From NCBI GenBank assembly GCA_965228735.1, contig OZ245838.1:4576001-4640000 (forward strand): a stretch of 64,000 nt of DNA, written 5' to 3'. The DNA comes from Planctomycetota bacterium (GTDB lineage: Bacteria > Planctomycetota > UBA1135 > UBA2386). Positions 31,235 through 64,000 of the stretch are shown here, in pieces (positions within the stretch are counted from its first letter, which is position 1; each line of letters begins with the position of its first letter). A program made the translations under genes and the position numbers. The notes under the pieces are model-generated. The model did no database searches. It was not told the origin of the DNA and saw nothing but the letters and a program-made list of their open reading frames with translations.

Positions 31235-31960
31235 ATGACCCGCCCGACCGACGGGCCTGGGGAAGCGGCTCCGCTGACGCCGTTGTCCGAGTGGCTGCCC
31301 CCGGCGGTTCGCGCGGCTGTCGCCCCGATCGACCCGCGCATCGACGATCTGCACGCCGAAGAGGCGGCGCTGATCGAGCGGGCCGTCCCGGTGCGCCAGC
31401 GCGAGTTCGCGGCCGGGCGGCGACTCGCGCGGCGGTTGCTCGCCGAGCTCGGGTGCTCGCCGACGCCGCTACTGCGGCTATCGGATCGCAGTCCACGCTG
31501 GCCGGATCAGGTCGTCGGCACGATCGCGCACTCTCGCGAACTCTGCGCGGTCGCGGTCGCGTCGCGGGGTCATGGCATCGTCGGAGTCGGTCTCGACCTC
31601 GAACCCGATGCCGCGATGGCGCCGGAGCTCGCGAACCGGATCCTCACGGCGCGCGAGCAGGCCGCGGCGGCGGCGTTGACGCCGGCGGAACGCGGCCGGT
31701 ACGCCACCCTCGCTTTCGCGGTCAAGGAAGCGGTGTTCAAGTGCGTCCACCCGGTAGGCAACGACGGCCTCGAATTCTCGGCGGTCGAGGTCGAGCCAGA
31801 TCTCGTGAGCCTGGCCAGCGACCACTCGATGCTTCGAACTCGGCCCGCGGTGGATCTGTTGCGCCGTATCGGTTCCGCAACCCTGGAATGCGGCGCGGAG
31901 CGGCGCGCCGGGCATTGGCTCGTAGCTGCCTTGCTATCGACCGTGCCGGCGCGGCGCTGA
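31235..31960 (+). CDS. 4'-phosphopantetheinyl transferase (EntD/Sfp-type)
   Basis: RQREFAAGR, PRWP..VVGTIAHS, VGLDLE, FAVKEAVFK. Confidence 0.9.
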   Translation: MTRPTDGPGEAAPLTPLSEWLPPAVRAAVAPIDPRIDDLHAEEAALIERAVPVRQREFAAGRRLARRLLAELGCSPTPLLRLSDRSPRWPDQVVGTIAHSRELCAVAVASRGHGIVGVGLDLEPDAAMAPELANRILTAREQAAAAALTPAERGRYATLAFAVKEAVFKCVHPVGNDGLEFSAVEVEPDLVSLASDHSMLRTRPAVDLLRRIGSATLECGAERRAGHWLVAALLSTVPARR

Positions 31961-32190: not shown

Positions 32191-32451
32191 TTGGACCGCG
32201 ATACGACCAGCCAGATCGTCTCGATCCTGCTCGAACACGGCCGGCTCAGCCGCGACGCGGCGGAGTTGGAGCCGGAAGACAGCCTGTACGATGCCGGCAT
32301 GACGTCCCACGCCAGTGTCAGCGTCATGTTGGCGTTGGAGGAGGCGTTCGACGTGGAGTTCCCTGATAGCATGCTCAGCCGGCGGGTCTTCGAGAGCATC
32401 GGTTCCATCAGGGACGCTGTCGAGCAACTGATGACCAGTGCCCAGGGCTGA
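32191..32451 (+). CDS. Carrier protein of the aminoacyl-carrier type
   Basis: LYDAGMTSHASVSVMLALEEAFDVEFPD with the Ppant Ser; TTG start after AAGGA. Confidence 0.88.
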   Translation: MDRDTTSQIVSILLEHGRLSRDAAELEPEDSLYDAGMTSHASVSVMLALEEAFDVEFPDSMLSRRVFESIGSIRDAVEQLMTSAQG

Positions 32452-32475
32452 GGTGCCAAGGACCCGCGCCGTGCG

Positions 32476-33639
32476 ATGACCGCAACTTCGACATCGACTT
32501 CCCTCGCCGGATCGGTTTCCAGGATCGCCCGGGACGTGGCAGCAAAGCACGCCGACTCCGTCGACGCGGAGGCGCGGTTCCCGCAGGAGACGATCGATGC
32601 CCTGAAGGCCGCGGGCGCCCTCGGCGCTGCCGTTCCGAAGGAGTTCGGGGGCGCCGGCAGCAGCGTCGAAGACGTCACGCAGATGGCGCAGTCGCTCGGT
32701 GAGAACTGCGCGGCGAGCGCGATGGTGTTCGCCATGCACCACATCCAGGTGGCGAGCATCGCGAATCACTGCGGTGAGAGCACCGAGCTGCGCGACTACC
32801 TGCGCCGCGTCGCGAGCGAGCAACGCCTCATCGCGTCGGCGACGTCCGAGGTCGGACCGAGCGGCGACATGCGGCGCAGTGAGTGCGCCGTGGTTCGAAG
32901 CGGCGACGGGTTCGAGGTCACGAAGCAGGCGACGACGATCAGCTACGGCAAGTTCGCCGATGATCTGCTCCTCACGGCGCGCCGCGATTCCGAAGCCGCG
33001 AGCAACGATCAGGTCGCGGTTCTCTGCGTCGACGGTGACTACACGATCGACACCAAGGGATCGTGGGACACGCTCGGCATGCGTGGGACCTGCTCCCCGG
33101 GCGGCGAGATCAAGGTGCGCGGCAAGGCCTGGCAGGTGATGCCCGCGTTCGGCGACATGGCCACCGAGACGATGGTGCCCTACTCGCACATCACCTGGGC
33201 CGGCCTCTGGCTCGGGATCGCGGTCGACGCGGTCAATCGGGCCCGCAAGGCCGTGCGTGGTGCCGCCCGCAAGAACGCCGGTGAAGTGCCGCTCGCGGCG
33301 ACCAACCTCGCCGACACGATGGAGAAGCTGAATCGGCTGAAGGCCGAGGTCTACATGGCCGCGCAGGAGCACGATCGGCTCATCGCGAACGACCGCGAGG
33401 CGCTTTCGAGCCTCGGGTACGCGCTCCGGATCAACACGCTCAAGCTGTCGGCATCGAAGCAGGTGCCCGAGATCGTGACCGAGGCGCTGCGCATCTGCGG
33501 CATCCGCGGCTACAAGAACGACTCGGAGTTCGCGCTCGGCCGTCACCTGCGCGATTCGCTGTCGGCGGCGTTGATGGTCAACAACGATCGATTGCGCGCC
33601 ACGAACGCCTCGCTCCTCTGCATCCACAAGGGCAGCTGA
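32476..33639 (+). CDS. Acyl-CoA/acyl-ACP dehydrogenase family protein
   Basis: VDAEARFP, ASATSE, WDTLGMRGTCS, ICGIRGY, RHLRD. Confidence 0.9.
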   Translation: MTATSTSTSLAGSVSRIARDVAAKHADSVDAEARFPQETIDALKAAGALGAAVPKEFGGAGSSVEDVTQMAQSLGENCAASAMVFAMHHIQVASIANHCGESTELRDYLRRVASEQRLIASATSEVGPSGDMRRSECAVVRSGDGFEVTKQATTISYGKFADDLLLTARRDSEAASNDQVAVLCVDGDYTIDTKGSWDTLGMRGTCSPGGEIKVRGKAWQVMPAFGDMATETMVPYSHITWAGLWLGIAVDAVNRARKAVRGAARKNAGEVPLAATNLADTMEKLNRLKAEVYMAAQEHDRLIANDREALSSLGYALRINTLKLSASKQVPEIVTEALRICGIRGYKNDSEFALGRHLRDSLSAALMVNNDRLRATNASLLCIHKGS

Positions 33640-33675
33640 GGCGCTGCCCCCCTCTCGCGCACACTCCCTTCGGCC

Positions 33676-34689
33676 GTGACTGAGAGTTCGGGCAACGTGA
33701 GTTCGGCTGCCGCCAGTGCGTCGGTCTGGTCGCTCGATGCAGCGACCTACGAGAACCACGCGCTGCACAAGAACGACCGCGATTGGCAGGAATCCAACTG
33801 CTACATCGATGTCTGGATCGAGGTGCTGCACGCGCTCGGGCTCGACGTCTACGCGAGCCTGCCGTTCACCCTCGCGAGCGACTTCGAGGACGATCAGTGG
33901 ACGTTCTACAAGCCGCCGCATACCGAGCTCGAGGAGCTCTACGGTCTCGATGTCCAGGAGCTGACACTCTGGCGTGATCTCGTGTCACACTGCGTGGAGC
34001 AGACGGCCGCGAAGAAGCTGGTCTTCGTCGAGATGGACGCGTTCCACCTCCCCGACGCCGAGGGCACGGACTACCACCAGCAGCACACGAAGTCGACGAT
34101 CGCCGTCGCGAGGATCGACGCCGAGAAGCGCACACTCGGCTACTTCCACAACACGAGCTACTACGAACTCGGCGGCGCCGACTTCGAAGGCGTCTTCAAC
34201 ACCGGCGAGCGGCCGGAGGGCTACCTGCCGCCGTACGCCGAGTGGGTTCGCATCGACAAGATGGTGCGCCGACCGGACGCGGAGCTCGTCCCGTTGTCGC
34301 TCGACCTCGCCCGCAAGCACCTCCGCCGCGCACCGACCGAGAACCCGCTCGAGAAGTTCGCGGAACGCTTTCCGCGCGATCTCGACTGGCTGCTCGAACG
34401 TGATCTCGCCGCGTATCACATGTACGTCTTCGCGGGCGTGCGGCAGTGCGGTTCGTCGTTCGACTTCGCGGCCCACTACCTGCGCTGGCTCGCCGCGCGC
34501 GGGCACCCGACGCTCGCCGAGCCGGCGGAGGAGCTCGCCATGATCTCGACCGGCTGCAAGGCGCTCATCCTCAAGCTCGCGCGCATCGTCAATCGCAAGA
34601 GGCCCAAGGACCTGACCCCGGACATCCGGGAACTGGCCGGTAACTGGGATCGGGCGATGAGCGCGCTGCGGACCCAGCTCGCGCAGTGA
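33676..34689 (+). CDS. DUF1839-family protein
   Basis: WQESNCYIDVWIE, DFEDDQWTFYKPP, DAFHLPD..GTDY..QHTKS, YFHN; typical neighbour of this carrier/ACAD pair. Confidence 0.75.
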   Translation: MTESSGNVSSAAASASVWSLDAATYENHALHKNDRDWQESNCYIDVWIEVLHALGLDVYASLPFTLASDFEDDQWTFYKPPHTELEELYGLDVQELTLWRDLVSHCVEQTAAKKLVFVEMDAFHLPDAEGTDYHQQHTKSTIAVARIDAEKRTLGYFHNTSYYELGGADFEGVFNTGERPEGYLPPYAEWVRIDKMVRRPDAELVPLSLDLARKHLRRAPTENPLEKFAERFPRDLDWLLERDLAAYHMYVFAGVRQCGSSFDFAAHYLRWLAARGHPTLAEPAEELAMISTGCKALILKLARIVNRKRPKDLTPDIRELAGNWDRAMSALRTQLAQ

Positions 34690-34720
34690 TCCGAGGCTGC
34701 GCGTCGGCTAGCGTTTTGGA

Positions 34721-37231
34721 ATGCGAGTCTCGCTGACCGAGGGTTGGATGTTCGCGGCGAGCGACGCCGGCATCGACGACCCGGCCGCGCCGGCGCTTGC
34801 GGACCTCGATTGGCGCGATGTGAGCGTGCCGGGAACCGTCGCATCGGCCCTGCGCGACCTCGGAGCCGGCGCCGATGACCGCGCAGCCATCGGCCGACGT
34901 GACCACTGGTTCCGGTGCCACTTCGCGCGACCCACGGAAAGCGCAGACGCGAGCATGAAGCTCGAGCTCGCCGGCCTCGCGTCGATCGCCGACGTCTGGC
35001 TCAACGGTGAGCACGTGCTGCACAGCGACTCGATGTTCGTCGCGCACGCCCTCGACGTCACGGATCGGCTGCAGGGCGACAACGAGCTCGTGCTGCGCTT
35101 CCATGCCCTGCTGCCGGCGCTCGGCAAGCGCCGACCGCGACCGCGGTGGCGCACGGCGCTCGTGAAGCCGCAGACGCTGCGCTACTTCCGCCAGACCCTG
35201 CTCGGGCACGTCACGGCGTGGTGTCCGGACACGATCGCGGTGGGTCCGTGGCGTGGCATCGATCTCGTCGTCGACGATGCCGTTGTCGTGCAGCGCCGCT
35301 CGGTGCGCACGAGCGTCGTCAACGGCACCGGTGTGGTCACCGTCATGCTCCAGCTGCAGCCGTGCGCGGGAACGGACCTGGACGGCGGCAGGCTCGTGGT
35401 CGGTGACCACACGGCCGAACTGGAGATCGCTCCCGGCGAGAACGGCGCGTCCGTCGCGGTCGCGCAGCTCGAGATCGCCGATGTGGAGCTGTGGTGGCCG
35501 CACACGCACGGCGGCCAGCCCCTCTATCCGGCAGCCGCCGAACTGCGCGCGGGCGGCGAGACGCTCGAGGTTCGACTCGGCAGTCTCGGCTTTCGAACGA
35601 TCGGCGAGCCGACGCTCGACCGCCCCGGCCTCGCCATCAACGGCGTCGAGATCCACGCGCGCGGCGCGTGTTGGACGACCCTCGACCTCGATCGCCTGTC
35701 TGCGGACCCCGAGGCCTACCGCGAAGCGCTCACGACGGCGCGCTATGGCGGTCTCAACATGCTGCGCGTCGGCGGCACGATGGTCTACGAGCACGACGCG
35801 TTCTATCGACTGTGCGACGAGCTCGGGATCCTCGTGTGGCAGGACTTCATGTTCGCCAACATGGACTATCCGATCGACGACCCGGAGTTTCGCGCGGCGA
35901 TCGAGCTCGAGAGCAAGCAGTTCCTCGAACGCACGCAGACCAGCTGCAGCCTCACGGTGCTGTGCGGCGGCAGCGAGGTCGAGCAGCAGGCCGCGATGCT
36001 CGGGCTGCCGCAGGAGGCCTGGTCCAACGAGTGGTTCGCGGCAGGCCTGCCGGCAATCTGCCGTGAGCTCCGGCCCGATCTGCCCTACTGGCCCTCGTCG
36101 CCGACCGGCGGCGAGCTGCCGTTCCACGTCGGGACCGGCATCGCGCACTACTTCGGCGTCGGCGCCTATCAGCGCCCGCTGGCCGACGCCCGGCTCAACG
36201 CGCCGCGGTTTGCGTCCGAGTGCCTCGCGTTCTCCAACGTGCCCGAACCCGAGAGCCTGCTCGAGCTCGGCGGCGGCGCCCTGCTCGGCCCGCACCACCC
36301 GGACTTCAAACGCGCGGTCGCGCGCGACCCCGGCACGGGCTGGGACTTCACCGACGTCACGGATCACTACGTCGAACGGCTGTTCGGCATCGATTCGCGT
36401 GACCTCCGATACGCCGACTGCGAGCGCTACTACCAGCACTGCCGGGTCGCGATCGGCGAGGTCCTCGCGACCACTGCCGGCCACTGGCGCGCCGCCGATT
36501 GCCGCAATCAGGGTGCCTTGATCTGGTTCTATCGCGACCTCGTGCTCGGCGCGGGCTGGGGCATCGTCGATGCCGCGGGGCGGCCCAAGAGCGCGTATCA
36601 CTACCTCCGACGCGCGTGGGCTCCGCGGGCCGTGTGGTTCGTCGACGATGGCCTCGATGGTCTGATCGCCCACGTCGCCAACGATGGCCCCGCACCGTTG
36701 ACCGCGAAACTGCAGGTTCGCGTCCTCGGACCGCGCGATGTGGTCACCGCCGAAGCCGAAACCGAGGTCGAGGTCGGGCCACACGCGCAGGCCGCGTTCG
36801 GCGTCGATCGACTCCTCGGCCGCTTCTGCGACACGACCTACTCCTATCGCTTCGGCCCGCGTGGTCACCACGTCATCGCCGTTCGCCTCGTGGAGGACGG
36901 CGCCGACGAGGCGATCGCGGAGGCGTGCTACTTCCCGAGCGAACTCCCGAGCGTGATGGACCCGGACGTTCGCGTGGAGGCCGAGGTCAGCGCGCAGCCC
37001 GCGGATGGTGACATCGAGATCTTCGACGTGACGTTCCGGTCGTCGCGGCTCTGCCAGGCCGTTGCGATCGATGCGCCGGGGTATCGCCCGAGCGACAACT
37101 ACTTCCACGTGCTGCCGGGCGCGCCGCGGACCGTTCGGCTCCGCGGCCGCGCCCCGCGCGGTCTGCGTGGGTTCGCGCAGCCGTTCAACTCGCCACACAC
37201 GGTTCGTCTGGTCGTTGCGCCAGACGCGTGA
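34721..37231 (+). CDS. GH2 beta-mannosidase-like glycoside hydrolase
   Basis: LWWPHTHG, NMLRVGG, CDELGILVWQDFMFA, GGSE (acid/base), FASE (nucleophile); no signal peptide seen. Confidence 0.85.
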   Translation: MRVSLTEGWMFAASDAGIDDPAAPALADLDWRDVSVPGTVASALRDLGAGADDRAAIGRRDHWFRCHFARPTESADASMKLELAGLASIADVWLNGEHVLHSDSMFVAHALDVTDRLQGDNELVLRFHALLPALGKRRPRPRWRTALVKPQTLRYFRQTLLGHVTAWCPDTIAVGPWRGIDLVVDDAVVVQRRSVRTSVVNGTGVVTVMLQLQPCAGTDLDGGRLVVGDHTAELEIAPGENGASVAVAQLEIADVELWWPHTHGGQPLYPAAAELRAGGETLEVRLGSLGFRTIGEPTLDRPGLAINGVEIHARGACWTTLDLDRLSADPEAYREALTTARYGGLNMLRVGGTMVYEHDAFYRLCDELGILVWQDFMFANMDYPIDDPEFRAAIELESKQFLERTQTSCSLTVLCGGSEVEQQAAMLGLPQEAWSNEWFAAGLPAICRELRPDLPYWPSSPTGGELPFHVGTGIAHYFGVGAYQRPLADARLNAPRFASECLAFSNVPEPESLLELGGGALLGPHHPDFKRAVARDPGTGWDFTDVTDHYVERLFGIDSRDLRYADCERYYQHCRVAIGEVLATTAGHWRAADCRNQGALIWFYRDLVLGAGWGIVDAAGRPKSAYHYLRRAWAPRAVWFVDDGLDGLIAHVANDGPAPLTAKLQVRVLGPRDVVTAEAETEVEVGPHAQAAFGVDRLLGRFCDTTYSYRFGPRGHHVIAVRLVEDGADEAIAEACYFPSELPSVMDPDVRVEAEVSAQPADGDIEIFDVTFRSSRLCQAVAIDAPGYRPSDNYFHVLPGAPRTVRLRGRAPRGLRGFAQPFNSPHTVRLVVAPDA

Positions 37232-38610: not shown

Positions 38611-40920
38611 ATGACTACCTCATCGCAGCGCTGGACGACCGTCGCCGTCTTGTCGCTCTCGTTGCTCGTTTCTTGCGCCTCGGGTGAGCAGGACGGAACC
38701 GGCGCCGGCAACGAGCTTCAAGTCCTCACCGATGGACTCCCAGACGCGCTGGTCGGCTCCAGTTACTCCGCTGCGATCGAGGTTACCGGCGGTACTCCGG
38801 GCTACACGTTCACGGTGGTCGATGGCAGTCTGCCCACCGGTCTCGATTGGAACGACACGAGCGGCGCGATCTCGGGCGTGCCGTCGACTGCTGGTTCGTA
38901 TCAGTGCACGATCCAGGTCGAGGATAGCAGCGTTCCTCCACTGATCGCGCAGCAGGCCGTTTCGGTCAACGTCTACACGCCGGCTACCGCGCTGACCGTG
39001 CATTCGACCTCTCTTCCGGGAGCAACGCAGGGGGCCAACTACTTCTCGAGCGTATTGGTCTCGGGGGGCACTCCGCCCTACGGATTCTCGGTCTCGGCGG
39101 GCTCGCTTTCGCCTGGCCTCAACCTCGATACAGCAACCGGGGACGTGCTCGGCACGCCAACGTTGAGTGGCAGTTTCGCGTTCACTGTCACGGTGACGGA
39201 CAGTGCCAGTCCGGCTCAAGTCACCCACAGTGGCCTGTCTCTGGTGGTCGCGTCGAATGGCTCCAATCCGACGGCAACGTTCACCGCCAGCCGAACGACC
39301 GGTGTAGCGCCGCTGTCGATCTTCTTCGACGCGACGACGATCGCGAGTCCTCAGTACCCGCGGAAGTTCCATCACGTTCAATACAACTGGGACTTCTCCG
39401 ATCCGGGGTCGAGGCGTCCGACGGCAACGGGCCCGATGGCGGTGCACGTGTTCGAGGATCCGGGCACGTACGTGGTGACGTGTGTCGCCCTCGAGCCGGA
39501 TGGCACGCAGATCAACGAAGCGATGCTGATTCAGGTACAGGACCCGGACGTCGTGTTTGCCGGGACCGATACCATTTGCTTCTCCAACACCGCCAACTTT
39601 CCTGGGGCTCCGGTCGGCGCGAACCTGGTGACGACTAGTTCCTTCGACACAGCCCTCGCATACGCCGGCACAGGTAAGCGGTTGCTGTTCCGTCGCGGCC
39701 ACACGTTCTACAACTCGAGCACGCTCACGATCGATTCGCAGGGTCCGATGCTCGTCGGCGCGTTCGGGACCGGCACGAACCCAGACGTTCGTGGCATCTT
39801 CGGTAACAACCCGGTGATCGACGTGACTCACACGAGCGATGTGCTCGAGCTCGGTGACAACGGTTCGGAGTGCACGGACCTGCGCCTGATGGACCTGGAC
39901 TTCGATCCGCCCTCGGGCACCCCGCAGAAGCTCATCGGTGCCGCGTACCGCGTCGTGAACACGCTCGTGTATCGCATCAAAGCGGGCGAGTTCCGCCAGA
40001 TGGTGAGCTTGTCGGACGGGATCCCGAACTTTTATTCCATCGCGAATCACGATCTGACGACGATTGCCGACTGCCACTTCTGGGAAACCAGCGAGTACGG
40101 CGCTTACGTCTCCTCGAACCGTTCCGCGATTCTGGGGAGCCACTTCTTCTCGATCCCGACGGGCAGTGATCAGCACTTGATCCGGTTGCCCTGGGTCAAG
40201 AAGGGCATTATCGCCGGCAACTACATGCGGGGTGCTGCTCCGAACAAGAACTGCATCAAGCTGCATGCCCTGCCCTACACGGGTTCGGCGGCCCAGATTT
40301 CCGAAGACCTGATCATCGCGGACAACGAGATCCACACGACGACGGACTGGGGCGTCACGATCGGAACCGCGAGTTCATCTCGCGACGAACGGGTTCGTAA
40401 CGTCGTCGTCGAGCGAAACCAGTTCGTTTCCCACAACGGCAGTCAGGTCGACCTGGTCGTCAACTGTCCAGAGGTCACCGCTCGCAACAACGTGTTCGTG
40501 AACGACATCACCAATTCGCTCGGGCACTACTGCATCCGAGTCGCGCAGCGCGGACCCGGCCCGTCCCCGGCCAGCGTGGAGATCCTTCACAACACCGCCT
40601 ACACGACGAACAGCTCAATGCCGTCGATCGACCTCGTCAACGTCGGAACCCACGTGGGCGGCGCGGCCAAGGTTTGGAACAACTTGCTCTACGCTCCGAA
40701 TCTCCCGTCGTCGGCGATCGCTTCCGGGTCGGCGCCGATCGATTCGCAGGGCAACCTGCTGAACATCAACCCGCTGTTCGTCAACCCGTCGGCTTGGGAC
40801 CTCTCGTTGCAGGCGTCGTCGCCGGCGATCGGCATCGGCATCGTAGCTCCCGTGTTGGTGGACTACATGAACGATCCGCGCTCCGGAGCGGCGCCCGATG
40901 CCGGCGCCTACGAGTTCTAG
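38611..40920 (+). CDS. Lipoprotein with two Ig-like (He_PIG) domains, PKD and right-handed beta-helix
   Basis: Lipobox LLVSC, two GGTP.Y.F.V..GSL..GL...G..SG.P repeats, TGVAPLSIFFDA/YNWDF, Asn-rich repeats, LQASSPAIG..APDAGAYE tail. Confidence 0.8.
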   Translation: MTTSSQRWTTVAVLSLSLLVSCASGEQDGTGAGNELQVLTDGLPDALVGSSYSAAIEVTGGTPGYTFTVVDGSLPTGLDWNDTSGAISGVPSTAGSYQCTIQVEDSSVPPLIAQQAVSVNVYTPATALTVHSTSLPGATQGANYFSSVLVSGGTPPYGFSVSAGSLSPGLNLDTATGDVLGTPTLSGSFAFTVTVTDSASPAQVTHSGLSLVVASNGSNPTATFTASRTTGVAPLSIFFDATTIASPQYPRKFHHVQYNWDFSDPGSRRPTATGPMAVHVFEDPGTYVVTCVALEPDGTQINEAMLIQVQDPDVVFAGTDTICFSNTANFPGAPVGANLVTTSSFDTALAYAGTGKRLLFRRGHTFYNSSTLTIDSQGPMLVGAFGTGTNPDVRGIFGNNPVIDVTHTSDVLELGDNGSECTDLRLMDLDFDPPSGTPQKLIGAAYRVVNTLVYRIKAGEFRQMVSLSDGIPNFYSIANHDLTTIADCHFWETSEYGAYVSSNRSAILGSHFFSIPTGSDQHLIRLPWVKKGIIAGNYMRGAAPNKNCIKLHALPYTGSAAQISEDLIIADNEIHTTTDWGVTIGTASSSRDERVRNVVVERNQFVSHNGSQVDLVVNCPEVTARNNVFVNDITNSLGHYCIRVAQRGPGPSPASVEILHNTAYTTNSSMPSIDLVNVGTHVGGAAKVWNNLLYAPNLPSSAIASGSAPIDSQGNLLNINPLFVNPSAWDLSLQASSPAIGIGIVAPVLVDYMNDPRSGAAPDAGAYEF

Positions 40921-40998
40921 AAGCTGGGCCGACAAAGGGCGGCGGTCGAGCTTCTGGTCTATGCGCTGCCGCTGGTCGGGCTTGTGGCCACCGGACTC

Positions 40999-41829
40999 TC
41001 AGTTGGTCTTGATTCCGAGGATTGCGCGAGCGCGGTCTCGAAACTCGGTTCGCCTCTCCCGTGGAACCGCGAAGTAGTTCGTCGTTCTGCGCGGGTAGAT
41101 GTGGCTTTCGAGGAAGCCGTCCAGGCCGAGTCCGTCATCCTCATGCGCAACCCGGTTGGGTACCTGAATCGCGTAGTCGTGGCGTTCGAACTCTTCCCAG
41201 AGTCCGTTCTTTGTGAAGCCTAGAACTTCCGAGCTCGTCGGGCCGCTCTCGAACATGACGAGAGGGCGGCGGTTCCGAAGTAGTTCGGGAGCCCCTCTGA
41301 GGACACCGAGCTCGGCTCCTTCCACGTCGATCTTCACGACGTCGACGGCCTCGTTGCCGACCAGGTCGTCCAGTCGCTTCACGCCTACCTGGATCTCGGT
41401 AACGTCCGTGCCGGACTTGGAAGGCCGTCTCAACGAGTTGTAACCCGACCGGCGCCGATCGAGATGGAACGACGCGGTGCCGTCTTGTTCGCCGACCGCA
41501 CAGTCGTGGACCGTCGCGCGCGGAAAGCGCAAGCGCAGGCGCTTGGCCTTGTCGGGGGTGGCTTCGATCGCGATGACCCGAACGTCTGGACAGTGTGCCA
41601 AAACGGCCGCCGTGATCGACCCGATGTGAGCCCCCACGTCGACGAACACGCTCCCTGGCTTCGGCAGACGAACTACGAGCGAAGTGGAGATCTCGTCGTT
41701 AGCGTGGGTGCCAACGGCTTCTCGGTTCCGGATCGCGGCATGCGTAAGCTCCAGTATCCCTCTCGCCGTGCTCAGCCACCGACCGAACGGTGTCGTCAAG
41801 ATGCGCTGCTTCAGGCCTTGGACGATCAC
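40999..41829 (-). CDS. FkbM-family methyltransferase
   Basis: FVDVGAHIG, KIDVEGAE. Confidence 0.88.
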   Translation of the reverse strand: MIVQGLKQRILTTPFGRWLSTARGILELTHAAIRNREAVGTHANDEISTSLVVRLPKPGSVFVDVGAHIGSITAAVLAHCPDVRVIAIEATPDKAKRLRLRFPRATVHDCAVGEQDGTASFHLDRRRSGYNSLRRPSKSGTDVTEIQVGVKRLDDLVGNEAVDVVKIDVEGAELGVLRGAPELLRNRRPLVMFESGPTSSEVLGFTKNGLWEEFERHDYAIQVPNRVAHEDDGLGLDGFLESHIYPRRTTNYFAVPRERRTEFRDRARAILGIKTN

Positions 41830-42049
41830 GGCACGTTCGGGTGGGGTGGATGCTGGCCCGACACGAAGGAGGTTACTTCATGCCGGGAGGCTGGGCTGGC
41901 GAAACCTACGTTCCTCAGATCAGGGGGTCCAGAATCCTCTGGTCGAAGCTGCGCGTTAGGTGGCGCGATCGGAGTCGGACGACGTCGCGGGGTCCGCATC
42001 GTCTGATTTCGGGATTGACTTGCACGATGAAGTGGGAGGATGACGCGAC

Positions 42050-42904
42050 GTGACCGATTCCTTGTTGAGCGACGTGACCACCGACCGGGGCGAGACCTTT
42101 CCGGTCCGCCGGTGGGGAATGCGGGGTCTGCCCATGATTCTGCACCATGCGACCGGCTTCTGTAAGGAAGTATGGGACCCGGTGGCGCGGGAGCTCGCCG
42201 CGGCCCACGTCGTCTACGCGTTCGACGCCCGGGGCCATGGTGACGGGCCGCCCGTCGACGGTGAACTCTCGTGGGAGCGATACTCGGCGGATTTGGCGGA
42301 TGTCTCGCGCGCCATCGCGCGTTGCGCCGGGTTCGAGTCGTTCGCGGGCCTGATCGGCCATTCACTGGGCGGCGTCGCTGGCCTCACGGCGGCTGTCGCT
42401 GAGCCGCAGCTATTCCGCCGACTGCTCCTCGTCGAGCCTGTGCTCATACCCGGTGCTGGTTGCAACGCACGTCAGCGCGGGCGTAGTCCTTTTTCGGTCA
42501 TGACCCGCATGCGACGCGCCAGATTCGATTCCCGTCGCCATGCCCGCGAGGTCTTGTCCGAGACCCCGCCCTACAGCCGGTTCTCCCCGGAGGTCTTCGA
42601 TGCGTATCTAGAGACGTGTTGGCGAGATCTCGACGGCGGTGAAGTCGGACTCAAGTGTTCGCCCGAACTGGAGGCGGCGATCTACGAGTTCGGCCCTACG
42701 AAGGTGCTCGACGGTCTCGATGGGTTTCACGTGCCGACCAGAATCGTGGCGGCTAATAGGGGCGACTTTCTTGCCGCCTATACATCCTTGCGAATTCACC
42801 GTTGGCTCGAGGTCGTCGAGGTCGATAGCAGCCACCTCGTGCCCATGGAGGATCCTCACACGATCGTCGATCTGGCGCGAAGTTGGTTCAAAGCGGGTGG
42901 CTAA
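42050..42904 (+). CDS. Alpha/beta hydrolase
   Basis: HATGF, DARGHG, GHSLGG, HLVPME; RBS GGAGG. Confidence 0.88.
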   Translation: MTDSLLSDVTTDRGETFPVRRWGMRGLPMILHHATGFCKEVWDPVARELAAAHVVYAFDARGHGDGPPVDGELSWERYSADLADVSRAIARCAGFESFAGLIGHSLGGVAGLTAAVAEPQLFRRLLLVEPVLIPGAGCNARQRGRSPFSVMTRMRRARFDSRRHAREVLSETPPYSRFSPEVFDAYLETCWRDLDGGEVGLKCSPELEAAIYEFGPTKVLDGLDGFHVPTRIVAANRGDFLAAYTSLRIHRWLEVVEVDSSHLVPMEDPHTIVDLARSWFKAGG

Positions 42905-42957
42905 CCCCTCGCCGGCGGGCGTTGGTGCTGCAGGGCCCCGTTCGTCGAGCGCTGTCA

Positions 42958-43551
42958 CTAACTCGTCTTTGCTGGCGACTTGAGCACCGGGCTCCCTGGC
43001 ATGCGTCGGGCCGGGTTGCCGATCATCGTTACCCCTGGCTCCACGTCCGTGACGATGACGGAGTTGGCGCCGATCACCGCATCGTGCCCCACCGTTACTG
43101 GCCCCGCGATGCAAGCACCCGCATAGATGTCGACCCGATCGCCGATGACCGGTAGGCCGTCGGACTCGGCGTTGCGGCGAGCGATACCGCAGGCGAAGTT
43201 CTGGCGCATCTGAACGTCGTCACCGATCGACTCTGCCATGATGTAGATCCCGCCGTGGTGCCAGATTCGGACTCGGCGGCCCAGCTTGACCGCGTACGGC
43301 ACGTGGGTCGCGAACGCCATGATCATGAAGCGGTTGAGGACCCGGTAGAGGACCGTGAACGGGAATCGCACGAGCTTCGGCAAGCCCATGCGCCAGTTGC
43401 CGAATCGGTGGATCCAGATCGCCCACAGTCCGGGTTGAAGCAGGCCCCGGTCATGGGCGCAGTAGTCCTCCCAGAGCAACCGGAACAACCCGATGCCAGC
43501 CGGGTTCTGGTTGGTCGAGCCGCGGCGCGGTTGAGGATTCGGGGAGTTCAT
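42958..43551 (-). CDS. CysE/WcaB-like hexapeptide acetyltransferase
   Basis: IHRFGNW, PVIGDRVDIYAGA, IGANSVIVTDV, GNPAR. Confidence 0.85.
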   Translation of the reverse strand: MNSPNPQPRRGSTNQNPAGIGLFRLLWEDYCAHDRGLLQPGLWAIWIHRFGNWRMGLPKLVRFPFTVLYRVLNRFMIMAFATHVPYAVKLGRRVRIWHHGGIYIMAESIGDDVQMRQNFACGIARRNAESDGLPVIGDRVDIYAGACIAGPVTVGHDAVIGANSVIVTDVEPGVTMIGNPARRMPGSPVLKSPAKTS

Positions 43552-43758
43552 GGGGCCAGGGAACAGTACCTCAGCGGGCGTCAGCGGCCGAGCGGATTGG
43601 CCTTGCCGGGGGATGGCTCGGTCGCCTCGGCATCGGCCAGGTGTCAGATGGCTCCGAGCGGGCCTACCCGTTTTCGAGGCGATGTGCGGGCTTGGATCCT
43701 GTCCCGGCTCATGGTCAGGTTGCGGGTCGAGACCGGGCCTTCGCTTGGTCCCCTACCG

Positions 43759-44721
43759 ATGTCAACCAGATCGAGGAACCCGGAGCCACGGTACTGTCTG
43801 ATTTCGCCGTGCAGAGACGAGGTGGAGTACGTCCGTAAGACGCTGGACTCGGTATTGAACCAGACCTTGCTACCGGCCTGTTGGGTCATCGTGGACGATG
43901 GCTCCACGGACGGCACGGAGAAGATCCTCGCAGAGTACGCGCAACGACATCCGTACATCAGGATTGTCCGGCGAGCGGATCGCGGTCGTCGCCGCGTCGG
44001 ACCTGGAGTCGTCGACGCATTTTACGCGGGCTACGAGACCGTGGACATGAACGACTTCGACTACGTCTGCAAACTGGACGTCGACCTCGACCTGCCGGAA
44101 CGCTACTTCGAGACGCTGATCGCGAAGATGGAGGCCGATCCGAGGATCGGTACCTGCAGCGGCAAGCCCTACTTCCGGTTGGGAGACCGGCTCGTCAGTG
44201 AGGCGTGCGGCGACGAGAATTCAGTCGGGATGACCAAGCTCTTTCGCGTCGAGTGCTTCCGCGACATCGGCGGATTCGTGCGAGAGGTCATGTGGGACGG
44301 CATCGATGGACATCGTTGCCGCATGCTTGGTTGGATCGCGGTCAGCTGGGACGAGCCCGAGCTGCGTTTCGAGCACCTACGCGTCATGGGCTCGAGCGAG
44401 AAGGGCATCTGGACCGGCCGAAAGCGCCACGGCTACGGGCAGTGGTTCATGGGAACGGGGTTGCCGTACATGGTGGCCACGGCGCTGTTCCGCATGAGTC
44501 GGCACCCGTATGTGATCGGCGGACTGGCCATGCTCGCCGGCTACATCGGGGCCATGCTGCGACGATCAGCCCGGTATCCAGATCTCGCGTTTCGGGCATT
44601 CCTTCGCCGATACCAGTGGTCTTGCCTGCTTCGCGGCAAGGGTGCGGCGACCAGGCGCCTCAACGAAGCCAGCGAGCAGGTGTGGCGCGAACGGCAGGCG
44701 AATTCCGTTGCCGATCGATGA
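43759..44721 (+). CDS. Glycosyltransferase family 2
   Basis: ISPCRDE, VDDGSTDGT, KLDVD. Confidence 0.9.
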   Translation: MSTRSRNPEPRYCLISPCRDEVEYVRKTLDSVLNQTLLPACWVIVDDGSTDGTEKILAEYAQRHPYIRIVRRADRGRRRVGPGVVDAFYAGYETVDMNDFDYVCKLDVDLDLPERYFETLIAKMEADPRIGTCSGKPYFRLGDRLVSEACGDENSVGMTKLFRVECFRDIGGFVREVMWDGIDGHRCRMLGWIAVSWDEPELRFEHLRVMGSSEKGIWTGRKRHGYGQWFMGTGLPYMVATALFRMSRHPYVIGGLAMLAGYIGAMLRRSARYPDLAFRAFLRRYQWSCLLRGKGAATRRLNEASEQVWRERQANSVADR

Positions 44722-44743
44722 GCCGGTTGGCCGGTGACACGGG

Positions 44744-45319
44744 TCAGTTCCCCCGCGCGACGGCCAGTGCACGCTTGCGCGATAGCGGCTTCTTGTCGGC
44801 GATCCACTCGAACCCGGCTCGCAGGATCGATCGAATCGATGGCACATTGCGGCGACTGCAGTCGACGTAGGCCGTTCCGCGGTTCGCGAGCTCCGCGTGC
44901 ATGGCGAAGCGATAGAGCTTCGGAGCCACACCGCGGCCGCGGAACGCTGGATACGTCCGGACACGAAAGAACACGATGTCTTCGGGTTCGAGCGGAAGGA
45001 ACCACTCCGCGAAGTACCGCCCCTTCCGGGTGAGCAGCAGTCCGGCCGTTCGGTTGTTGATCGACGCGACGTACAGCGTCGAGTTCTCGCGCAGCTCGCG
45101 CCTGTCTTCGGCCAACGTGGATTCGCCGCCTTCCGCGATGATGGCGCGGCAGACTTCGGCCGGGAGCTCGTCCGCGTTCTCGTACGCACGAAACGAGAGC
45201 TCGGTATCCGTCACCGCCGAGTAGGGGCCCCGATGCGCGAACACGTGGTGCTTGTTGGGCCAAAGGACCCACCAGTAGCCCCGCAGGCGTCGAAGGCCTT
45301 TACCGACCAGGCCGGGCAT
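44744..45319 (-). CDS. GNAT N-acetyltransferase
   Basis: RTYPAFRGRGVA, NVPSIRSILRAGF; start uncertain. Confidence 0.8.
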   Translation of the reverse strand: MPGLVGKGLRRLRGYWWVLWPNKHHVFAHRGPYSAVTDTELSFRAYENADELPAEVCRAIIAEGGESTLAEDRRELRENSTLYVASINNRTAGLLLTRKGRYFAEWFLPLEPEDIVFFRVRTYPAFRGRGVAPKLYRFAMHAELANRGTAYVDCSRRNVPSIRSILRAGFEWIADKKPLSRKRALAVARGN

Positions 45320-45665
45320 GCGGTCCAGGCGAGACGGTTCGGGTACGCGCATCGAGCTGGCGGGGGAGACGGAGAGCGAAGTCATGCGGCCGGTCGTGAG
45401 CTGCCAGCGGTAGTCTGGCACGTTCTCGGCGCACGGCCAGCCGATTGTACGAATGGTTCTCTTCTCGAGCACGGGAGACTTGGAGCCGACCTTGCAACAG
45501 TCGAGACGGCAGGGCGTCGGCATCCGTTCGGATGCGTGATCCGCTGATGGCATCGGTGCCTGCCGGCGGCGACCGGAGCGTTTTGGCTGGACTGGGTATC
45601 GTGACCGCTATTGAATCCGGATGGGCTTCGAGTGCCTCGTGGCCGAGGTTGCCGCAAGCCACCAC

Positions 45666-46919
45666 ATGAAGATCAACATCCCGTACGGCCGATCCGCCGT
45701 TCATCCTCTCGAGCTTGACGCGCGGACTCGCATTCAGGTTCTCGAGGCGAACGAAGCGCCGGAGGTCGACGAGGAGCAGGTCATTCAGCACGCGGTTCGG
45801 AATCCGATCGACAGCGAGCCGCTCGAGACCTTTCTCGCGGGGGCGCGGGATGTGCTCGTGATCGTGAACGACGCGACGCGCCCGACCCCGACTGCTCGAA
45901 TCCTCGACTACATCGACAGCTCGCTGCAGCGCGTCGAGCATCGCTTCATCGTGGCGACGGGCGCCCATCGGGCCCCGACCGAGGCGGAGTACCAACGAAT
46001 CTTCGGCGATCGTTACCCGACGATTCGTGGCCGCGTCACTTCGCACGACTCGAAGCGCCGGGAGGACATGGTCGATCTCGGGCACTCATCGAACGGGACT
46101 CCGATCCTCATCAACCGGGCAGCGATCGATGCCGATCGACTCGTGATCATCGGCGGAGTCGTGCCGCACTATTTCGCGGGCTACACCGGCGGCCGCAAGT
46201 CGCTGCTGCCGGGCATCGCGGGGTTCGAGACCATCGAAGCGAACCACCGCCTCGCCTTGCAGTCCTCGGCTCGGGCGCTGGCGCTGCGCGGGAATCCGGT
46301 TCACGAGGACATGGAGGATGCGATTCGCTCGGTCGAGAAACCCGTGTTCTCGATCATGGTCGTGCCGGACAAGAACCACCGGGTGGCTGCTGCAACGGCT
46401 GGCCACATCCATGGATCGTTCGAGCGTGCGGTCGAGAAGAGCAATCGGATCTTCGTCGCGCCGCTGGCCAGGAAAGCCGACATCGTCGTATCCGTCGTCA
46501 AACCGCCGCAGGACATCGACCTCTATCAGGCTCAGAAGGGGATCGAGAACGCGAAGCTCGCATTGAAGGATGGTGGCATCATCATCCTCGTCGCGGAGTG
46601 TGACAACGGCGTTGGTTCGAGCACGTTCGCTGACCTCCTCCGTAGTCGCGAGACGTCCCAAGAGGTCCTCGCAGAGATCGACCGTTCGTTCCGGCTGGGG
46701 TACCAGAAGGCCGGGATGATGGCCGAGATCGATACCTGGGCGAAGATGTGGATCGTGACGGACATCGATCGTGACGAGTTGCAGGGGTTGTTCCTCACCC
46801 CGTTCGGGAGCGTTCAGGAGGCCGTCGACCGCGCTCTCGAGGACAAGGGCCCGGACGCCGAGCTGCTGGTCCTGATGGATGGCGGAATGACGGTTCCGAG
46901 CGTCGGGTCGGGTGCTTGA
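45666..46919 (+). CDS. larA: LarA-family nickel-pincer-dependent racemase/epimerase
   Basis: NDATRPTP, ATGAHR, PHYFAGYTGGRKSLLPGI, EANH, GNPVHEDM, DLYQAQKG. Confidence 0.9.
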   Translation: MKINIPYGRSAVHPLELDARTRIQVLEANEAPEVDEEQVIQHAVRNPIDSEPLETFLAGARDVLVIVNDATRPTPTARILDYIDSSLQRVEHRFIVATGAHRAPTEAEYQRIFGDRYPTIRGRVTSHDSKRREDMVDLGHSSNGTPILINRAAIDADRLVIIGGVVPHYFAGYTGGRKSLLPGIAGFETIEANHRLALQSSARALALRGNPVHEDMEDAIRSVEKPVFSIMVVPDKNHRVAAATAGHIHGSFERAVEKSNRIFVAPLARKADIVVSVVKPPQDIDLYQAQKGIENAKLALKDGGIIILVAECDNGVGSSTFADLLRSRETSQEVLAEIDRSFRLGYQKAGMMAEIDTWAKMWIVTDIDRDELQGLFLTPFGSVQEAVDRALEDKGPDAELLVLMDGGMTVPSVGSGA

Positions 46920-47092
46920 CCGCGCGAGCGCAAGCTGTTGTCGCGCCCCTGTTCCGCGCGGTTGCTCCCGGCAAGGGTCGGTTCAAGGCCGCGATGGGAG
47001 GGGGTCGATAGTGGCTCGCGGGTTGCAGGAGGCGGATGCGGCTGCCGGGACCGGTGCGCCGTTGCCGCGGCAAGTGGAATGAGGCACACGAA

Positions 47093-48325
47093 ATGACGAC
47101 GGCCGCTGTCCGAGAACTGCTGCGGTCGAGCAAGGCGGCTGCCGTTGTGTTCCCGCTGAGCTACAACGGCGTCCTCTTCACGCGGGCGTTGCATGCCGAG
47201 GGCGTCCCCGTCGTGGGCGTCGTGCAGCCGCCCAGGGACTGCTTCTGGTGGACGTGGAGTTGCAGGAAGGTCGTCGTCGACGATCTCTACGGCGAGGACA
47301 CGGTGGCGACCCTGATCGCCCTCGGTGAGATCGCCGACATCAAACCCGTGCTGATCGCTACGTCCGATGAGGGGTTGCTCTTCATCACGAGGCACCGGGA
47401 GCGGCTGGCGCCTTTCTTCCGCATCAACGTTCCACGTGCGGATACCGCGGCACTCCTGATGGACAAGCTGAGTCTGTACGGCTGGGGCAGCGACCGGTTC
47501 GACTTTCCGAAGACGCTCGCGATCCACTCGGACGACGAGCTGGCCCGGGCGGTGAGCGAGGTGACGATGCCGGCGATCATCAAGCCGACCTATCGCGACG
47601 CGAACTGGCCGCCAGAGCTCGACAAGGCAGTGCTGTGCGAAGACACAGCTACGATGGAGGCCTACTATCGCGAGGCCAAGGACCACGCGCCGACCTTCCT
47701 GGTTTCGGAGTACGTCCCGGGCGGTGACGCGAACATCGAAACTTGCCACGTCTACTACGATCGGGGGCGGATGTTGGCGTCGTACACGGACCAGAAGATC
47801 CGGCAGTCGCCGCCACTGACGGGAACCGGCGCGTTCATCTCGTCGTGCCACAACCCCGAGATCCGCGACATCACGAAGCGGTTCTTCGACGCCCACGGGG
47901 ACTACTCGGGCGTCGGCGGGATCGAGTTCAAGAAGGACGAGCGGACGGGCAGCTTCAAGATCATCGAGCCGTTCGTCGGCCGACCGAGCAGTCACTTCTA
48001 CACCGGCCTGGGCGAGGGGTTCAACTTCCCCTATCTCGTCTACTGCCACATCGCCGGGCTCGACGTTCCGGAGTATCAGCAGTCCCGCCGGATCGTCAGT
48101 CAGTTGGACGAAGAGTTCGAGCTGCGCTCGTTCCGGTGGTACCTGCGCCAGGGTGAGATGACGATCTGGGGCTACATCAGAGCCGTTTGCAGCACCCGGG
48201 TCTTCGTGCGCTATTCGCTGCGTGATCCGATCGTCGGGCTGGTGTACACGGCGCAGGTCTTGCGGCGGATCGTCGGGAAGGCGTTCGCGCGCTTGATCGG
48301 CAAACGCGGCAAGGACCCGGCGTGA
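47093..48325 (+). CDS. ATP-grasp carboxylate-amine ligase, D-aspartate-ligase-like
   Basis: VLIATSDE, LLMDK, PKT, IIKP, SEYVPGGD, KIRQSP, IEFKKDERTGSFKIIE. Confidence 0.8.
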   Translation: MTTAAVRELLRSSKAAAVVFPLSYNGVLFTRALHAEGVPVVGVVQPPRDCFWWTWSCRKVVVDDLYGEDTVATLIALGEIADIKPVLIATSDEGLLFITRHRERLAPFFRINVPRADTAALLMDKLSLYGWGSDRFDFPKTLAIHSDDELARAVSEVTMPAIIKPTYRDANWPPELDKAVLCEDTATMEAYYREAKDHAPTFLVSEYVPGGDANIETCHVYYDRGRMLASYTDQKIRQSPPLTGTGAFISSCHNPEIRDITKRFFDAHGDYSGVGGIEFKKDERTGSFKIIEPFVGRPSSHFYTGLGEGFNFPYLVYCHIAGLDVPEYQQSRRIVSQLDEEFELRSFRWYLRQGEMTIWGYIRAVCSTRVFVRYSLRDPIVGLVYTAQVLRRIVGKAFARLIGKRGKDPA

Positions 48326-49323
48326 CACTCGGCGTCGTGGTGATCGGGCGCAACGAAGGTGAGCGCCTGCGTCGCGCGATCGAGTCGTGTCGTGGTCGAG
48401 GCGCACACGTGCTCTACGTTGATTCCGGATCCACGGACGGCAGCGTGAAGTTGGCGCGAGAGCTGGGCGTTGCCGTACTCGGATTGTGCCCCTCCCGTCC
48501 GTTCTCCGCGGCGCGCGGCCGCAAGGAGGGCTTCGAGTGGTTCGCGGCGAACGGCGTCGATGTCGACCACGTCCAGTTCGTGGACGGCGACTGCTGTCTC
48601 GATCGGGCGTGGCTCGAGTGCGCGACGGGTCATCTGGCCGCCAATGCCGATGTCGGCATAGTCTGCGGCGGCCTCGAGGAAGAGCATCCGGAAGCTTCGG
48701 TGTTCAACCGGATGAACTCGATCCGCTGGCAGGCTGCCGCGCCGGGCGACATCGAGTCGTGTGGTGGAATCTTCATGGTGCGGCGCGCGGTCTACGAGGC
48801 CGCAGGCGGCTTCGACGACCGGTTGATCACGGGGGAAGAGGCGGAGTTCTGTGTTCGCGTGCGGGCGTCCGGAGCACGTATCGTTCGGCTGCCGGCGCCG
48901 ATGGCATCCCACGATTCGAACATGGTGCGCTTCGGGGATTGGTGGAAGCGCGCGGTCTGGGGCGGCTATGGCGATGCCCACAAGCTGCGGGCGCAAGTGG
49001 ACATGGGCGGGGCGAGCGAGGGCTCCGAGTTGCGGAGTGCGCTGCTCTGGGGGGCGGTCGTGCCGGCGGTGGCCGTGCTCGGTGCGGTCGTTGCGCTTTG
49101 GGTGCCCTGGCTCTGGCTGGTACCGCTGTCATGCGTGGCCGGGTACCTGCTGCTCTTCGCCAAGATCGCGGCGCATCGGTTGCGGCAAGGGGACGGATTC
49201 GGGGATGCCGCGGTCTATTCCGCGCTTTGCGTCGTCCGAAAGACGCCGTTCGCGGTCGGTGTCCTGAGGTTCTTCGCCAGTCGTGGCGGGCAGGCGCGGC
49301 CGGACCCCCATGCCCGGGCGTAG
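48322..49323 (+). CDS. Glycosyltransferase family 2 with C-terminal TM segments
   Basis: VVVIGRNEG, YVDSGSTDGS, QFVDGD, GEEAEFC; GTGA overlap with the ATP-grasp gene. Confidence 0.9.
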   Translation: MTLGVVVIGRNEGERLRRAIESCRGRGAHVLYVDSGSTDGSVKLARELGVAVLGLCPSRPFSAARGRKEGFEWFAANGVDVDHVQFVDGDCCLDRAWLECATGHLAANADVGIVCGGLEEEHPEASVFNRMNSIRWQAAAPGDIESCGGIFMVRRAVYEAAGGFDDRLITGEEAEFCVRVRASGARIVRLPAPMASHDSNMVRFGDWWKRAVWGGYGDAHKLRAQVDMGGASEGSELRSALLWGAVVPAVAVLGAVVALWVPWLWLVPLSCVAGYLLLFAKIAAHRLRQGDGFGDAAVYSALCVVRKTPFAVGVLRFFASRGGQARPDPHARA

Positions 49324-49426
49324 CGGCCATGGCAACGGGCGAACCGGGCCGGCCCAGCTCGGCGCCGGGCCCGCGAGAAGCCCGGCATGGCGGGGAGGCC
49401 CGGTCGCCGATCGGTCCGCGTGAAGC

Positions 49427-49432
49427 TATACT
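49427..49432 (+). promoter_or_regulatory. Candidate -10 box for the wzc-wzy-wzx unit
   Basis: TATACT in a GC-rich intergenic gap about 125 nt before the ATG at 49556. Confidence 0.4.
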
Positions 49433-49555
49433 GCTCAGCGTCTTGGGCGCCGCGGCCCGATAACCGCATGGACTGCTCACTTCGACCGGCAGCTTCGTTG
49501 CCAGTGCACGTTCGCTGGAGTCACGCGGTCGCTGACAGCTTGGAAGACTGACTGA

Positions 49556-51775: not shown

Positions 51776-51811
51776 TGCGGGTCGTGCACCGATGACGACC
51801 GGTGGTGCGCG

Positions 51812-54585: not shown

Positions 54586-54617
54586 TCGCCGCGTCCTGCT
54601 CGGCGGTATTCGGGGCG

Positions 54618-55691
54618 TCAACGATAGCGCCGCCGCCGCTCCAGCCGTCCACGGACTCGGGTGGGGAGTTGACGCAGGCCCTTGAACGGGAGCCCGACCG
54701 TGTATCGCTCCCAGGTAGCGATGGCTCTCCGGCAAGTGCGAAGAACCGACGGGGTCTCGACCGTGCCCTCGAGCAGGCCGATCTCGCTCGTCATCAGCCG
54801 CTGTTTGTAGAGCGCTTCGCCCTTGCCGAGATCGATTCGTCGGATCCCACGCTCGGCGACCGCTTCTGCAATCCTGAGCAGCAGAATGAGCCCGGGGCTG
54901 AACCTCGAGTATTCCGCCGTGTAGCCGGGGAACCAGTAGTGCAGGACATCCGTCGAGCGAATGCCGAAGTGCAAAGCGATCGGTTCGTCACCGAGATAGA
55001 GCGCCGAGAGGATTCCCGAGAACTGTTCCTCTCGGGTGGCGTGCGCTGCCCGGAGAAGATCTCTGGTCCAGGCATGGGCGAACGCGTCCGCGGTTCCCGA
55101 CTCGCGGTACTGGCTCGACTTGATCGCCATGAGCCGGTCCAGAAGGCGATCGTCGGTTGCCTCCAACTCGAACCGCAGCGGCCCGTGCTCGCGTTCGAGC
55201 TTCCGGCACGCGGCATCGACCTTGTTCACCTGCTTGGATCCGCTGGCGCGAACCCGAGCGCCGTAGTCCGCGAAACCGGCTTCCAGATCCATGCAGGGCG
55301 ACGCTGCCGACGCCGTAGCGTGTGGCGCGAACGCTTCGTTGCCCGACGACAGGTGATCGAAATCCCAGACCGCGACCCCACAGTTGGCGACCAACTCCTG
55401 GGCGTCGAATCGTGTGTCCGCGGCCATGATCGGCCCGTGGTGATCCGAGAGCGGTCCGCCGACCGGGCGTCCACGGCGCCATGGTCCGACCTGGAACGGG
55501 AAGAAGCCGGTCGGGTTCGAGTCGCCGCCGAGGATGGCGACGCGCACGTCGTTGCGCACCGTCGCGACCAACCGCGTGAATTCGTGGCAGAAGTAGGGAC
55601 TGGCCAGCAGCGGGTTCGCGCTCCGGATCTCGTTCCAGGCCGCCACGTCCCGGGCGGTGAGATCCATGCCATCGATGACCCTGACTTTCAC
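54618..55691 (-). CDS. GNAT acyltransferase, CelD/BcsL type
   Basis: SPYFCHEF, GGPLSDHHG, YSRFSPGLILL, IDLGKGEALYK. Confidence 0.85.
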   Translation of the reverse strand: MKVRVIDGMDLTARDVAAWNEIRSANPLLASPYFCHEFTRLVATVRNDVRVAILGGDSNPTGFFPFQVGPWRRGRPVGGPLSDHHGPIMAADTRFDAQELVANCGVAVWDFDHLSSGNEAFAPHATASAASPCMDLEAGFADYGARVRASGSKQVNKVDAACRKLEREHGPLRFELEATDDRLLDRLMAIKSSQYRESGTADAFAHAWTRDLLRAAHATREEQFSGILSALYLGDEPIALHFGIRSTDVLHYWFPGYTAEYSRFSPGLILLLRIAEAVAERGIRRIDLGKGEALYKQRLMTSEIGLLEGTVETPSVLRTCRRAIATWERYTVGLPFKGLRQLPTRVRGRLERRRRYR

Positions 55692-60024: not shown

Positions 60025-60038
60025 AGTCGACCCACCGA

Positions 60039-61349: not shown

Positions 61350-61414
61350 GGGCGGGTGTGTTCTTGTGGCGGTCTCGTGCGCCGGAACAATGGCGTCGCC
61401 CCTTCCCGAGGCCG

Positions 61415-63999: not shown

Positions 64000-64000
64000 G

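Follow-up and report, generated by a model that had tools for sequence, protein, structure and literature searches.

The 64,000-nucleotide stretch analysed here (the window; GenBank assembly GCA_965228735.1, contig OZ245838.1, positions 4,576,001 to 4,640,000) belongs to a Planctomycetota bacterium and carries four genes in the order carrier protein, acyl-CoA dehydrogenase (ACAD)-fold flavoprotein, DUF1839 protein and glycoside hydrolase of family 2 (GH2). This is the canonical order of a published cassette minus its seryl-tRNA-synthetase (SerRS)-like amino acid:[carrier protein] ligase. The carrier (32191..32451) belongs to the Atu2571 family (NF005480/PRK07081, 94 bits against a cut-off of 72), with its phosphopantetheine-bearing serine in the motif DAGMTSHAS, a TTG start and AAGGA upstream. 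Its best PDB matches are 4h2w and 2jq4, the closest solved structure is that of Atu2571, and it is 69–71% identical to the carriers of two ligase-bearing cassettes, L024 and G457. The divergent ACAD-fold flavoprotein follows (32476..33639; ACAD Pfam domains), then a 36-nucleotide spacer that we read as the site of the lost ligase (33640..33675), the papain-like DUF1839 protein (33676..34689, with a GTG start at 33676 or 33697; PF08893, E = 1e-108) and a β-mannosidase-like GH2 enzyme of the cassette's own subfamily (34721..37231; GH2 domains). All four open reading frames are intact and on the + strand, and DUF1839 is present in a single copy in the whole genome. The original prediction, that gaps of 24–36 bp leave no room for another gene, held when the coordinates were rechecked (gaps of 24, 36 and 31 bp). 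Upstream by 230 bp and on the same strand lies a gene for an Sfp/EntD-type 4′-phosphopantetheinyl transferase (PPTase; 31235..31960; Pfam 4PPT_N and ACPS), the first gene of a larger island, whose product likely primes the carrier. ACAD and DUF1839 share a reading frame across positions 33637–33696, separated by one TGA, 12 sense codons and a low-complexity stretch; such a shared frame is expected by chance in one case out of three. No clear ribosome-binding site precedes the GTG at 33676, and read-through or weak DUF1839 translation is possible.

We compared this layout with 49 mapped DUF1839 loci (L002–L050), several of which are duplicates or close kin; five start at DUF1839 and are unjudgeable. 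A ligase gene lies directly upstream of DUF1839 in 40 of the 44 assessable loci. In three of the others, an adenylation enzyme precedes the carrier and no ligase is present: L014 and L042, which look like one and the same contig, and L020. The fourth, L028, holds only GH2 and DUF1839. Three annotated plasmids, from Azospirillum, Rhizobium and Caballeronia, read carrier–ACAD–ligase–DUF1839–GH2, the same cluster order as that given in the supplement of PMC10318531. The ligase thus normally belongs to the gene set, as had been supposed, and the comparison of gene order proposed with the original prediction shows ligase-less loci to be uncommon. Across plasmids, 65 records carry DUF1839 and 66 the ligase, and among the matches listed (60 each) the counts per genus are equal except for Rhizobium (18 for DUF1839 against 16 for the ligase); the two plasmid exceptions that were checked are a solitary DUF1839 gene and a truncated copy. 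Reduced forms include a divergent GH2 with DUF1839 alone (L028:7382-10966), a solitary DUF1839 on a conjugative plasmid (L119:6941-7927) and truncated ligase and GH2 genes (L120:6498-8444), and Cupriavidus carries a second DUF1839 paralogue apart from its ligase (L121:9004-9852). DUF1839 occurs in none of 40 sampled relatives, in 1 of 90 genomes of the family and in 1 of 400 of the phylum. No ligase-less or adenylation-loaded cassette was found in the literature searched, which left subscription papers mostly outside and to which supplements of papers on the ligases may add cases. We conclude that the locus genuinely represents a rare version of a published cluster without its ligase, and that the new element is a ligase-less copy with a distant candidate loader.

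The genome search for the ligase family that had been suggested as a check came back blank by three routes. The family model NF005479, which scores 377–394 bits in the ligase-bearing genomes G217 and G457 (G433 and G457 share contig and coordinates and were counted as one genome), had no match in this genome at E ≤ 10. A profile built from 12 ligases of related loci and run with --max on all six frames reached E = 0.97 at best; it also missed the host's class II synthetases at significance, so that its blank speaks only against true members of the family. The best tblastn match had E = 0.34. The genome is a single 7.19-Mb contig with a completeness of 93.4%, unclosed, and its ends do not overlap. 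The contig starts in a transposase-like frame (L074:1-900), presumably resembling IS256, which may explain why it is unclosed.

The junction at which the ligase is missing is intact. In public runs X3 and X4 the whole 8-kb stretch lies in one contig with 0 differences, and a contig of X8 spans the ACAD–DUF1839 junction, again with 0 differences. Compared with L024, 112 letters replace 996, the ligase included, in the contigs of all four runs (X3, X4, X8 and X10, from four studies), any of which could be the assembly's own source. An assembly deletion at the junction is thereby ruled out; a ligase just outside the window or lost in assembly, which the original prediction had named as speaking against it, was not seen. 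No contig in the four runs covers most of the L024 ligase, a weak negative, since the floor was 80% identity and a genuine copy is expected at about 75%; one 30-letter match to that ligase was traced to an unrelated place in the genome. The spacer holds no ligase remnant above shuffled sequence (288 and 220 of 300 shuffles scored as high), and scans for a promoter and a terminator gave chance level. We read the locus as a known amino acid:[carrier protein] ligase/DUF1839 cassette from which the ligase has been cleanly lost.

The remaining genes look intact. The ratio of non-synonymous to synonymous rates (dN/dS) is about 0.16–0.25 for the cassette against L024 and G457, compared with 0.12–0.30 for other island genes, and all catalytic residues checked in the cassette genes are kept. 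In quick, midpoint-rooted trees of 19 ACADs and 19 DUF1839 proteins, the window proteins group with those of the ligase-bearing L024 (SH-aLRT 100 and 99) and not with the adenylation-type cassettes, so the ligase loss looks independent of the gammaproteobacterial ones. Tip lengths are 0.14 and 0.13 for the window, against 0.30 and 0.22 for L024. By these measures the cassette genes are free of decay, although selection, tips and spacer together leave the date of the loss unset.

A genome search with the adenylation (A) domain of L020 found a candidate loader, a stand-alone adenylation enzyme of 519 residues (G000:C1:1366195-1367754) that lies 3.2 Mb from the cassette, between two kelch-repeat genes and with no adjoining carrier. 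It shares 58–59% identity with the A domains in the L020 and L014 cassettes and has the same ten-residue code, DNFFIAMVDK, with the pocket positions assigned by motif numbering. PF00501 matches the genome 10 times, in 9 reading frames, and the other AMP-binding enzymes are at most 33% identical to the cassette A domain. Matches to this A family above 50% identity occur in none of 20 ligase-bearing DUF1839 genomes (best 38%) and in both of the two ligase-less gammaproteobacterial genomes, in which neither a ligase search (G434) nor the locus maps revealed a ligase. The background above 50% is 1 of 90 genomes of the family, 0 of 195 of the class, 0 of 400 of the phylum (one match at 39%) and 0 of 399 other scored Gammaproteobacteria; these samples overlap, many of the genomes are incomplete, and one gammaproteobacterial genome went unscored. 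We estimate from this single event that chance co-occurrence of the cassette and the A family would be of the order of 1–2%. The family was not found in G001, of the same genus, or in G002, and a viral-contig scan and a plasmid search gave no match; the closest homologues are 66–71% identical.

In the gammaproteobacterial loci L014/L042 and L020, the order is A–carrier–ACAD–DUF1839–GH2–hydrolase. They resemble the window in lacking a ligase, in having ACAD directly before DUF1839 and in that their genomes encode an A enzyme from the same family with an identical code; they differ in that their A gene adjoins the carrier and the hydrolase is kept, whereas here the A gene is 3.2 Mb away, and the trees that place the window ACAD and DUF1839 with L024 argue against common descent. 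The single A-bearing relative among the 90 family genomes, G461, has no DUF1839 and encodes the same A family together with a small carrier-like acyl carrier protein (ACP), an AurF-type di-iron oxygenase and an FAD monooxygenase (L091:7614-11586), an arrangement that reads as a second load-and-oxidise module. The ACP and AurF-like partners have no match in the window's genome, which holds only a weak monooxygenase match; the cassette carrier is for that reason a plausible partner of the orphan A enzyme. Another free carrier gene (G000:C1:2805613-2805879; L093:5613-5879) has glycosyltransferase and sugar-dehydratase genes as neighbours, and no loader was noted next to it; a further free carrier is encoded at C1:1305508-1305759.

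Of the trans loading proposed in the original prediction, by a distant ligase or by a non-ribosomal peptide synthetase (NRPS) A domain beyond the right edge, the idea of loading in trans gained a concrete candidate, although 3.2 Mb off; no distant ligase was found, and the edge gene has no A domain. Its reading frame (− strand, 63265-66141, that is L073:3265-6141, with the 3′ part 63265..64000 in the window) encodes a 958-residue FkbH-ACP-thioesterase protein (TIGR01686, 266 bits against a cut-off of 147; PP-binding; thioesterase) with no PF00501/AMP-binding match, which rules it out as an NRPS A domain.

The other cassette enzymes bear on what would happen to a loaded residue. The ACAD family profile matches a type-2 ACAD (5gj7), butyryl-CoA dehydrogenase, DnmZ and KijD3 at similar scores, and the model has a TM score of about 0.8 to ACADs. 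The family consensus has no Glu in the regions taken to correspond to the two usual catalytic positions, those of medium-chain (MCAD) and of long-chain or isovaleryl-CoA dehydrogenases (LCAD/IVD). The protein stands at about the same distance from dehydrogenases as from flavin N-oxygenases. In DUF1839, C42, H137 and H158 are invariant and T141 is kept in at least 90% of 63 sequences. The model (predicted local distance difference test score 93) shows a papain-like and a helical domain; Foldseek, on which the fold claims rest, gives AziU3, CtaG and CcbD as the best folds (E from 1e-9 to 1e-4; 4e-7 to 1e-4 for CtaG and CcbD). According to PMC12865890, CtaG, BtrH and AsbE are papain-like proteins whose donors are bound to a carrier, and CcbD acylates an amino sugar. 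DUF1839 would share with CcbD, CtaG, BtrH and AsbE the bipartite papain-plus-helical fold and an invariant Cys; it differs in sequence (about 11–14% identity) and in its triad, a permuted C(T/S)H against their Cys-His-Asp in the account of PMC10318531, where glycan processing and acyl-CoA-dependent action are suggested for the family. We predict from the model that DUF1839 is a carrier-dependent transacylase; the top fold match to the aziridine-forming AziU3 makes another chemistry possible. The GH2 enzyme has β-mannosidases as its best PDB matches (E = 2e-51), keeps both catalytic glutamates (acid/base and nucleophile) and has the motifs G(G/N)SE and F(A)xEC typical of 29 cassette GH2 sequences. 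The β-mannosidase consensus before the acid/base Glu is an NNE-type motif, in contrast to GGSE in the window and G(N/G/D)SE in the cassette subfamily, and the substrate may differ from that of the usual β-mannosidase.

A glycan setting is provided by the island around the cassette. In G001, purF directly abuts the gene found here at window position ~76875, and so the PPTase, cassette, exopolysaccharide (EPS) genes, FkbH gene, deacetylases and export genes form one island of ~45.6 kb that G001 lacks. The EPS locus (38611..63260) encodes GT2 and GT4 glycosyltransferases, WecG, a Wzc-like protein, a flippase, an AsnB-type amidotransferase, GNATs, FkbM, a sulfotransferase and a LarA-family racemase, and may supply the acceptor. 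Several genes of this island have homologues around the two nearest cassettes, those of L024 and G457. The FkbH-ACP-thioesterase is a candidate glycerate donor for the polysaccharide; G457 has a homologue 53–55% identical beside its GH2 gene. The racemase (45621-46919; NF052593, 378 bits, below the cut-off of 500) belongs to the nickel-pincer hydroxy-acid racemases and, in the same island as FkbH, might set the stereochemistry of a hydroxy-acid decoration. A reading frame after GH2 (37337-38113) has no Pfam or NCBIfam match; by eye it seems to resemble a Kdo/WaaP-type kinase. At the right end of the island (window 71087-74728; L073:11087-14728), a lasso-cyclase-like amidotransferase (NF033535, 500 bits against a cut-off of 525) and an HprK-like kinase lie beside an ABC transporter.

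Our preferred reading, held tentatively and at close to an even chance, is that the carrier is loaded in trans by the orphan A enzyme after clean loss of the ligase. The island PPTase would prime the carrier; the A enzyme would activate an α-amino acid (code DNFFIAMVDK) and load it; the ACAD-fold flavoprotein would oxidise the tethered residue by α,β-desaturation or N-oxidation; and DUF1839 would take up the acyl group on Cys42 for transfer to an amine; the probable acceptor is an amino sugar of the island polysaccharide or a sugar released or remodelled by GH2. All of this chemistry is inferred, and an island amino sugar would be the likeliest acceptor. The locus might then be a second, independent swap from a tRNA-synthetase-like ligase to one adenylation family, here recruited in trans and with no visible change in the carrier, a part of the reading that we put a little lower again.

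Several observations weigh against loading by the orphan enzyme. The association is one event in one genome, and the enzyme came from a search that used the L020 protein as query. A quick 72-row tree does not place it as sister to the cassette-linked A domains, and its code, present in 112 of 125 family members, is no mark of cassette use; the enzyme could be a leftover of a G461-type A–ACP–AurF module. The carrier keeps the ligase-type motif TSHASV, as in L024, and not the A-type TSLATV, although one carrier from a ligase-bearing Caballeronia cassette likewise reads SSLATV. The DUF1839 start here lacks the ligase stop that overlaps it in L024, and the tandem α/β-hydrolase that usually follows the cassette has no match anywhere in the genome. 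With dS at 0.9–1.3, near saturation, the selection estimate averages over time before the loss, and a recent loss of the ligase leaves no signal in it. The link to glycans is also loose: judged from locus maps and from Pfam scans of 63 of the 91 flank proteins called, glycan-synthesis-type neighbours accompany 9 of the 19 ligase-bearing loci with flanks, none of the three annotated plasmid loci and none of the five L014 flank genes scanned. The suggestion that the polysaccharide locus and the PPTase hint at function stands as far as the shared island goes and holds in part more widely.

The main rival, which the original prediction left out of account, is that the cassette is a recent relic: ligase and hydrolase would have been lost from a mobile island, the rest would be idle or GH2 alone useful, and the orphan enzyme would be there by coincidence. 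We consider this a serious explanation, if on balance a doubtful one, at about one chance in three's worth of belief. The island is patchy: among genomes of the family 1 in 90 has DUF1839, and in the phylum sample 1 in 400. Broken copies occur elsewhere (the truncated ligase and GH2 of L120, the solitary DUF1839 of L119). The long pieces in the run contigs show no differences, so that the samples give no time depth, and the carrier motif is unchanged. Set against this are four full-length genes with their catalytic residues and short tree tips, a spacer without ligase remnant, unlike the ragged L120, and an A family found in only about 1 of 90 genomes of this bacterial family.

Loading by another host enzyme (an aminoacyl-tRNA synthetase, another AMP-forming ligase or an NRPS A domain ~30 kb past the right edge), or action of DUF1839 on a CoA thioester, is improbable. 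The 10 PF00501 matches offer candidates, and acyl-CoA-dependent action is among the suggestions for DUF1839 in PMC10318531; yet the remaining AMP-binding enzymes are at most 33% identical to the cassette A domain, and the NRPS in the vicinity, which contains a carrier domain itself, is not part of the island. Still less probable is loading of glycerate onto the free carrier in trans by the island FkbH protein, followed by ACAD oxidation of the glyceryl carrier as in hydroxymalonyl- and methoxymalonyl-ACP pathways. FkbH scores above its cut-off in the same island, where an FkbM-family methyltransferase is also present, but it has its own ACP and thioesterase in cis, and the presence of both this gene and the ligase in G457 shows that FkbH was not acquired to replace the latter. 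A true ligase in DNA outside the assembly, in a contig-end gap or on a plasmid, would fit the completeness of 93.4% and the ends without overlap and is the least probable of all, given the intact junction in contigs of four studies and the position of 40 of 40 ligases directly upstream of DUF1839. In one Cupriavidus locus a second DUF1839 paralogue stands apart from its ligase.

Amino acid:[carrier protein] ligases were reportedly described by Mocibob in 2010 and 2013; we take the known ones to be Atu2573 of Agrobacterium, the source of the Atu2571 carrier, and Bll0957 of Bradyrhizobium. The window resembles their clusters in its carrier family and in the ACAD, DUF1839 and GH2 genes that follow in the conserved order. 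It differs in that no ligase was found, there is no tandem α/β-hydrolase, and the adjoining PPTase is of Sfp and not AcpS type; the host, moreover, is likely outside the taxa named for the family, and the cassette is rare in the phylum sample. These ligases are among the enzymes treated in the review PMC9437257. The logic of a discrete loader, a carrier and a flavin oxidase is also that of DltA/DltC and of type II NRPS modules: the L020 and L014 A domains score on TIGR01733 and on DltA models, below the DltA cut-offs. Unlike DltA/DltC systems, no DltB or DltD was noted among the island genes scanned.

If the orphan enzyme does load this carrier, cassettes of this kind would receive one cargo from either of two unrelated enzyme classes, and that cargo could be named directly through the A enzyme. 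A three-protein system of PPTase, carrier and A enzyme would bear both on the cargo and on whether ligase and ANL loaders are interchangeable on one carrier, and would supply the donor needed to ask whether DUF1839 acts like CcbD and transfers to an amino sugar of the EPS. If loading fails, the locus would be an ordinary decaying island cassette.

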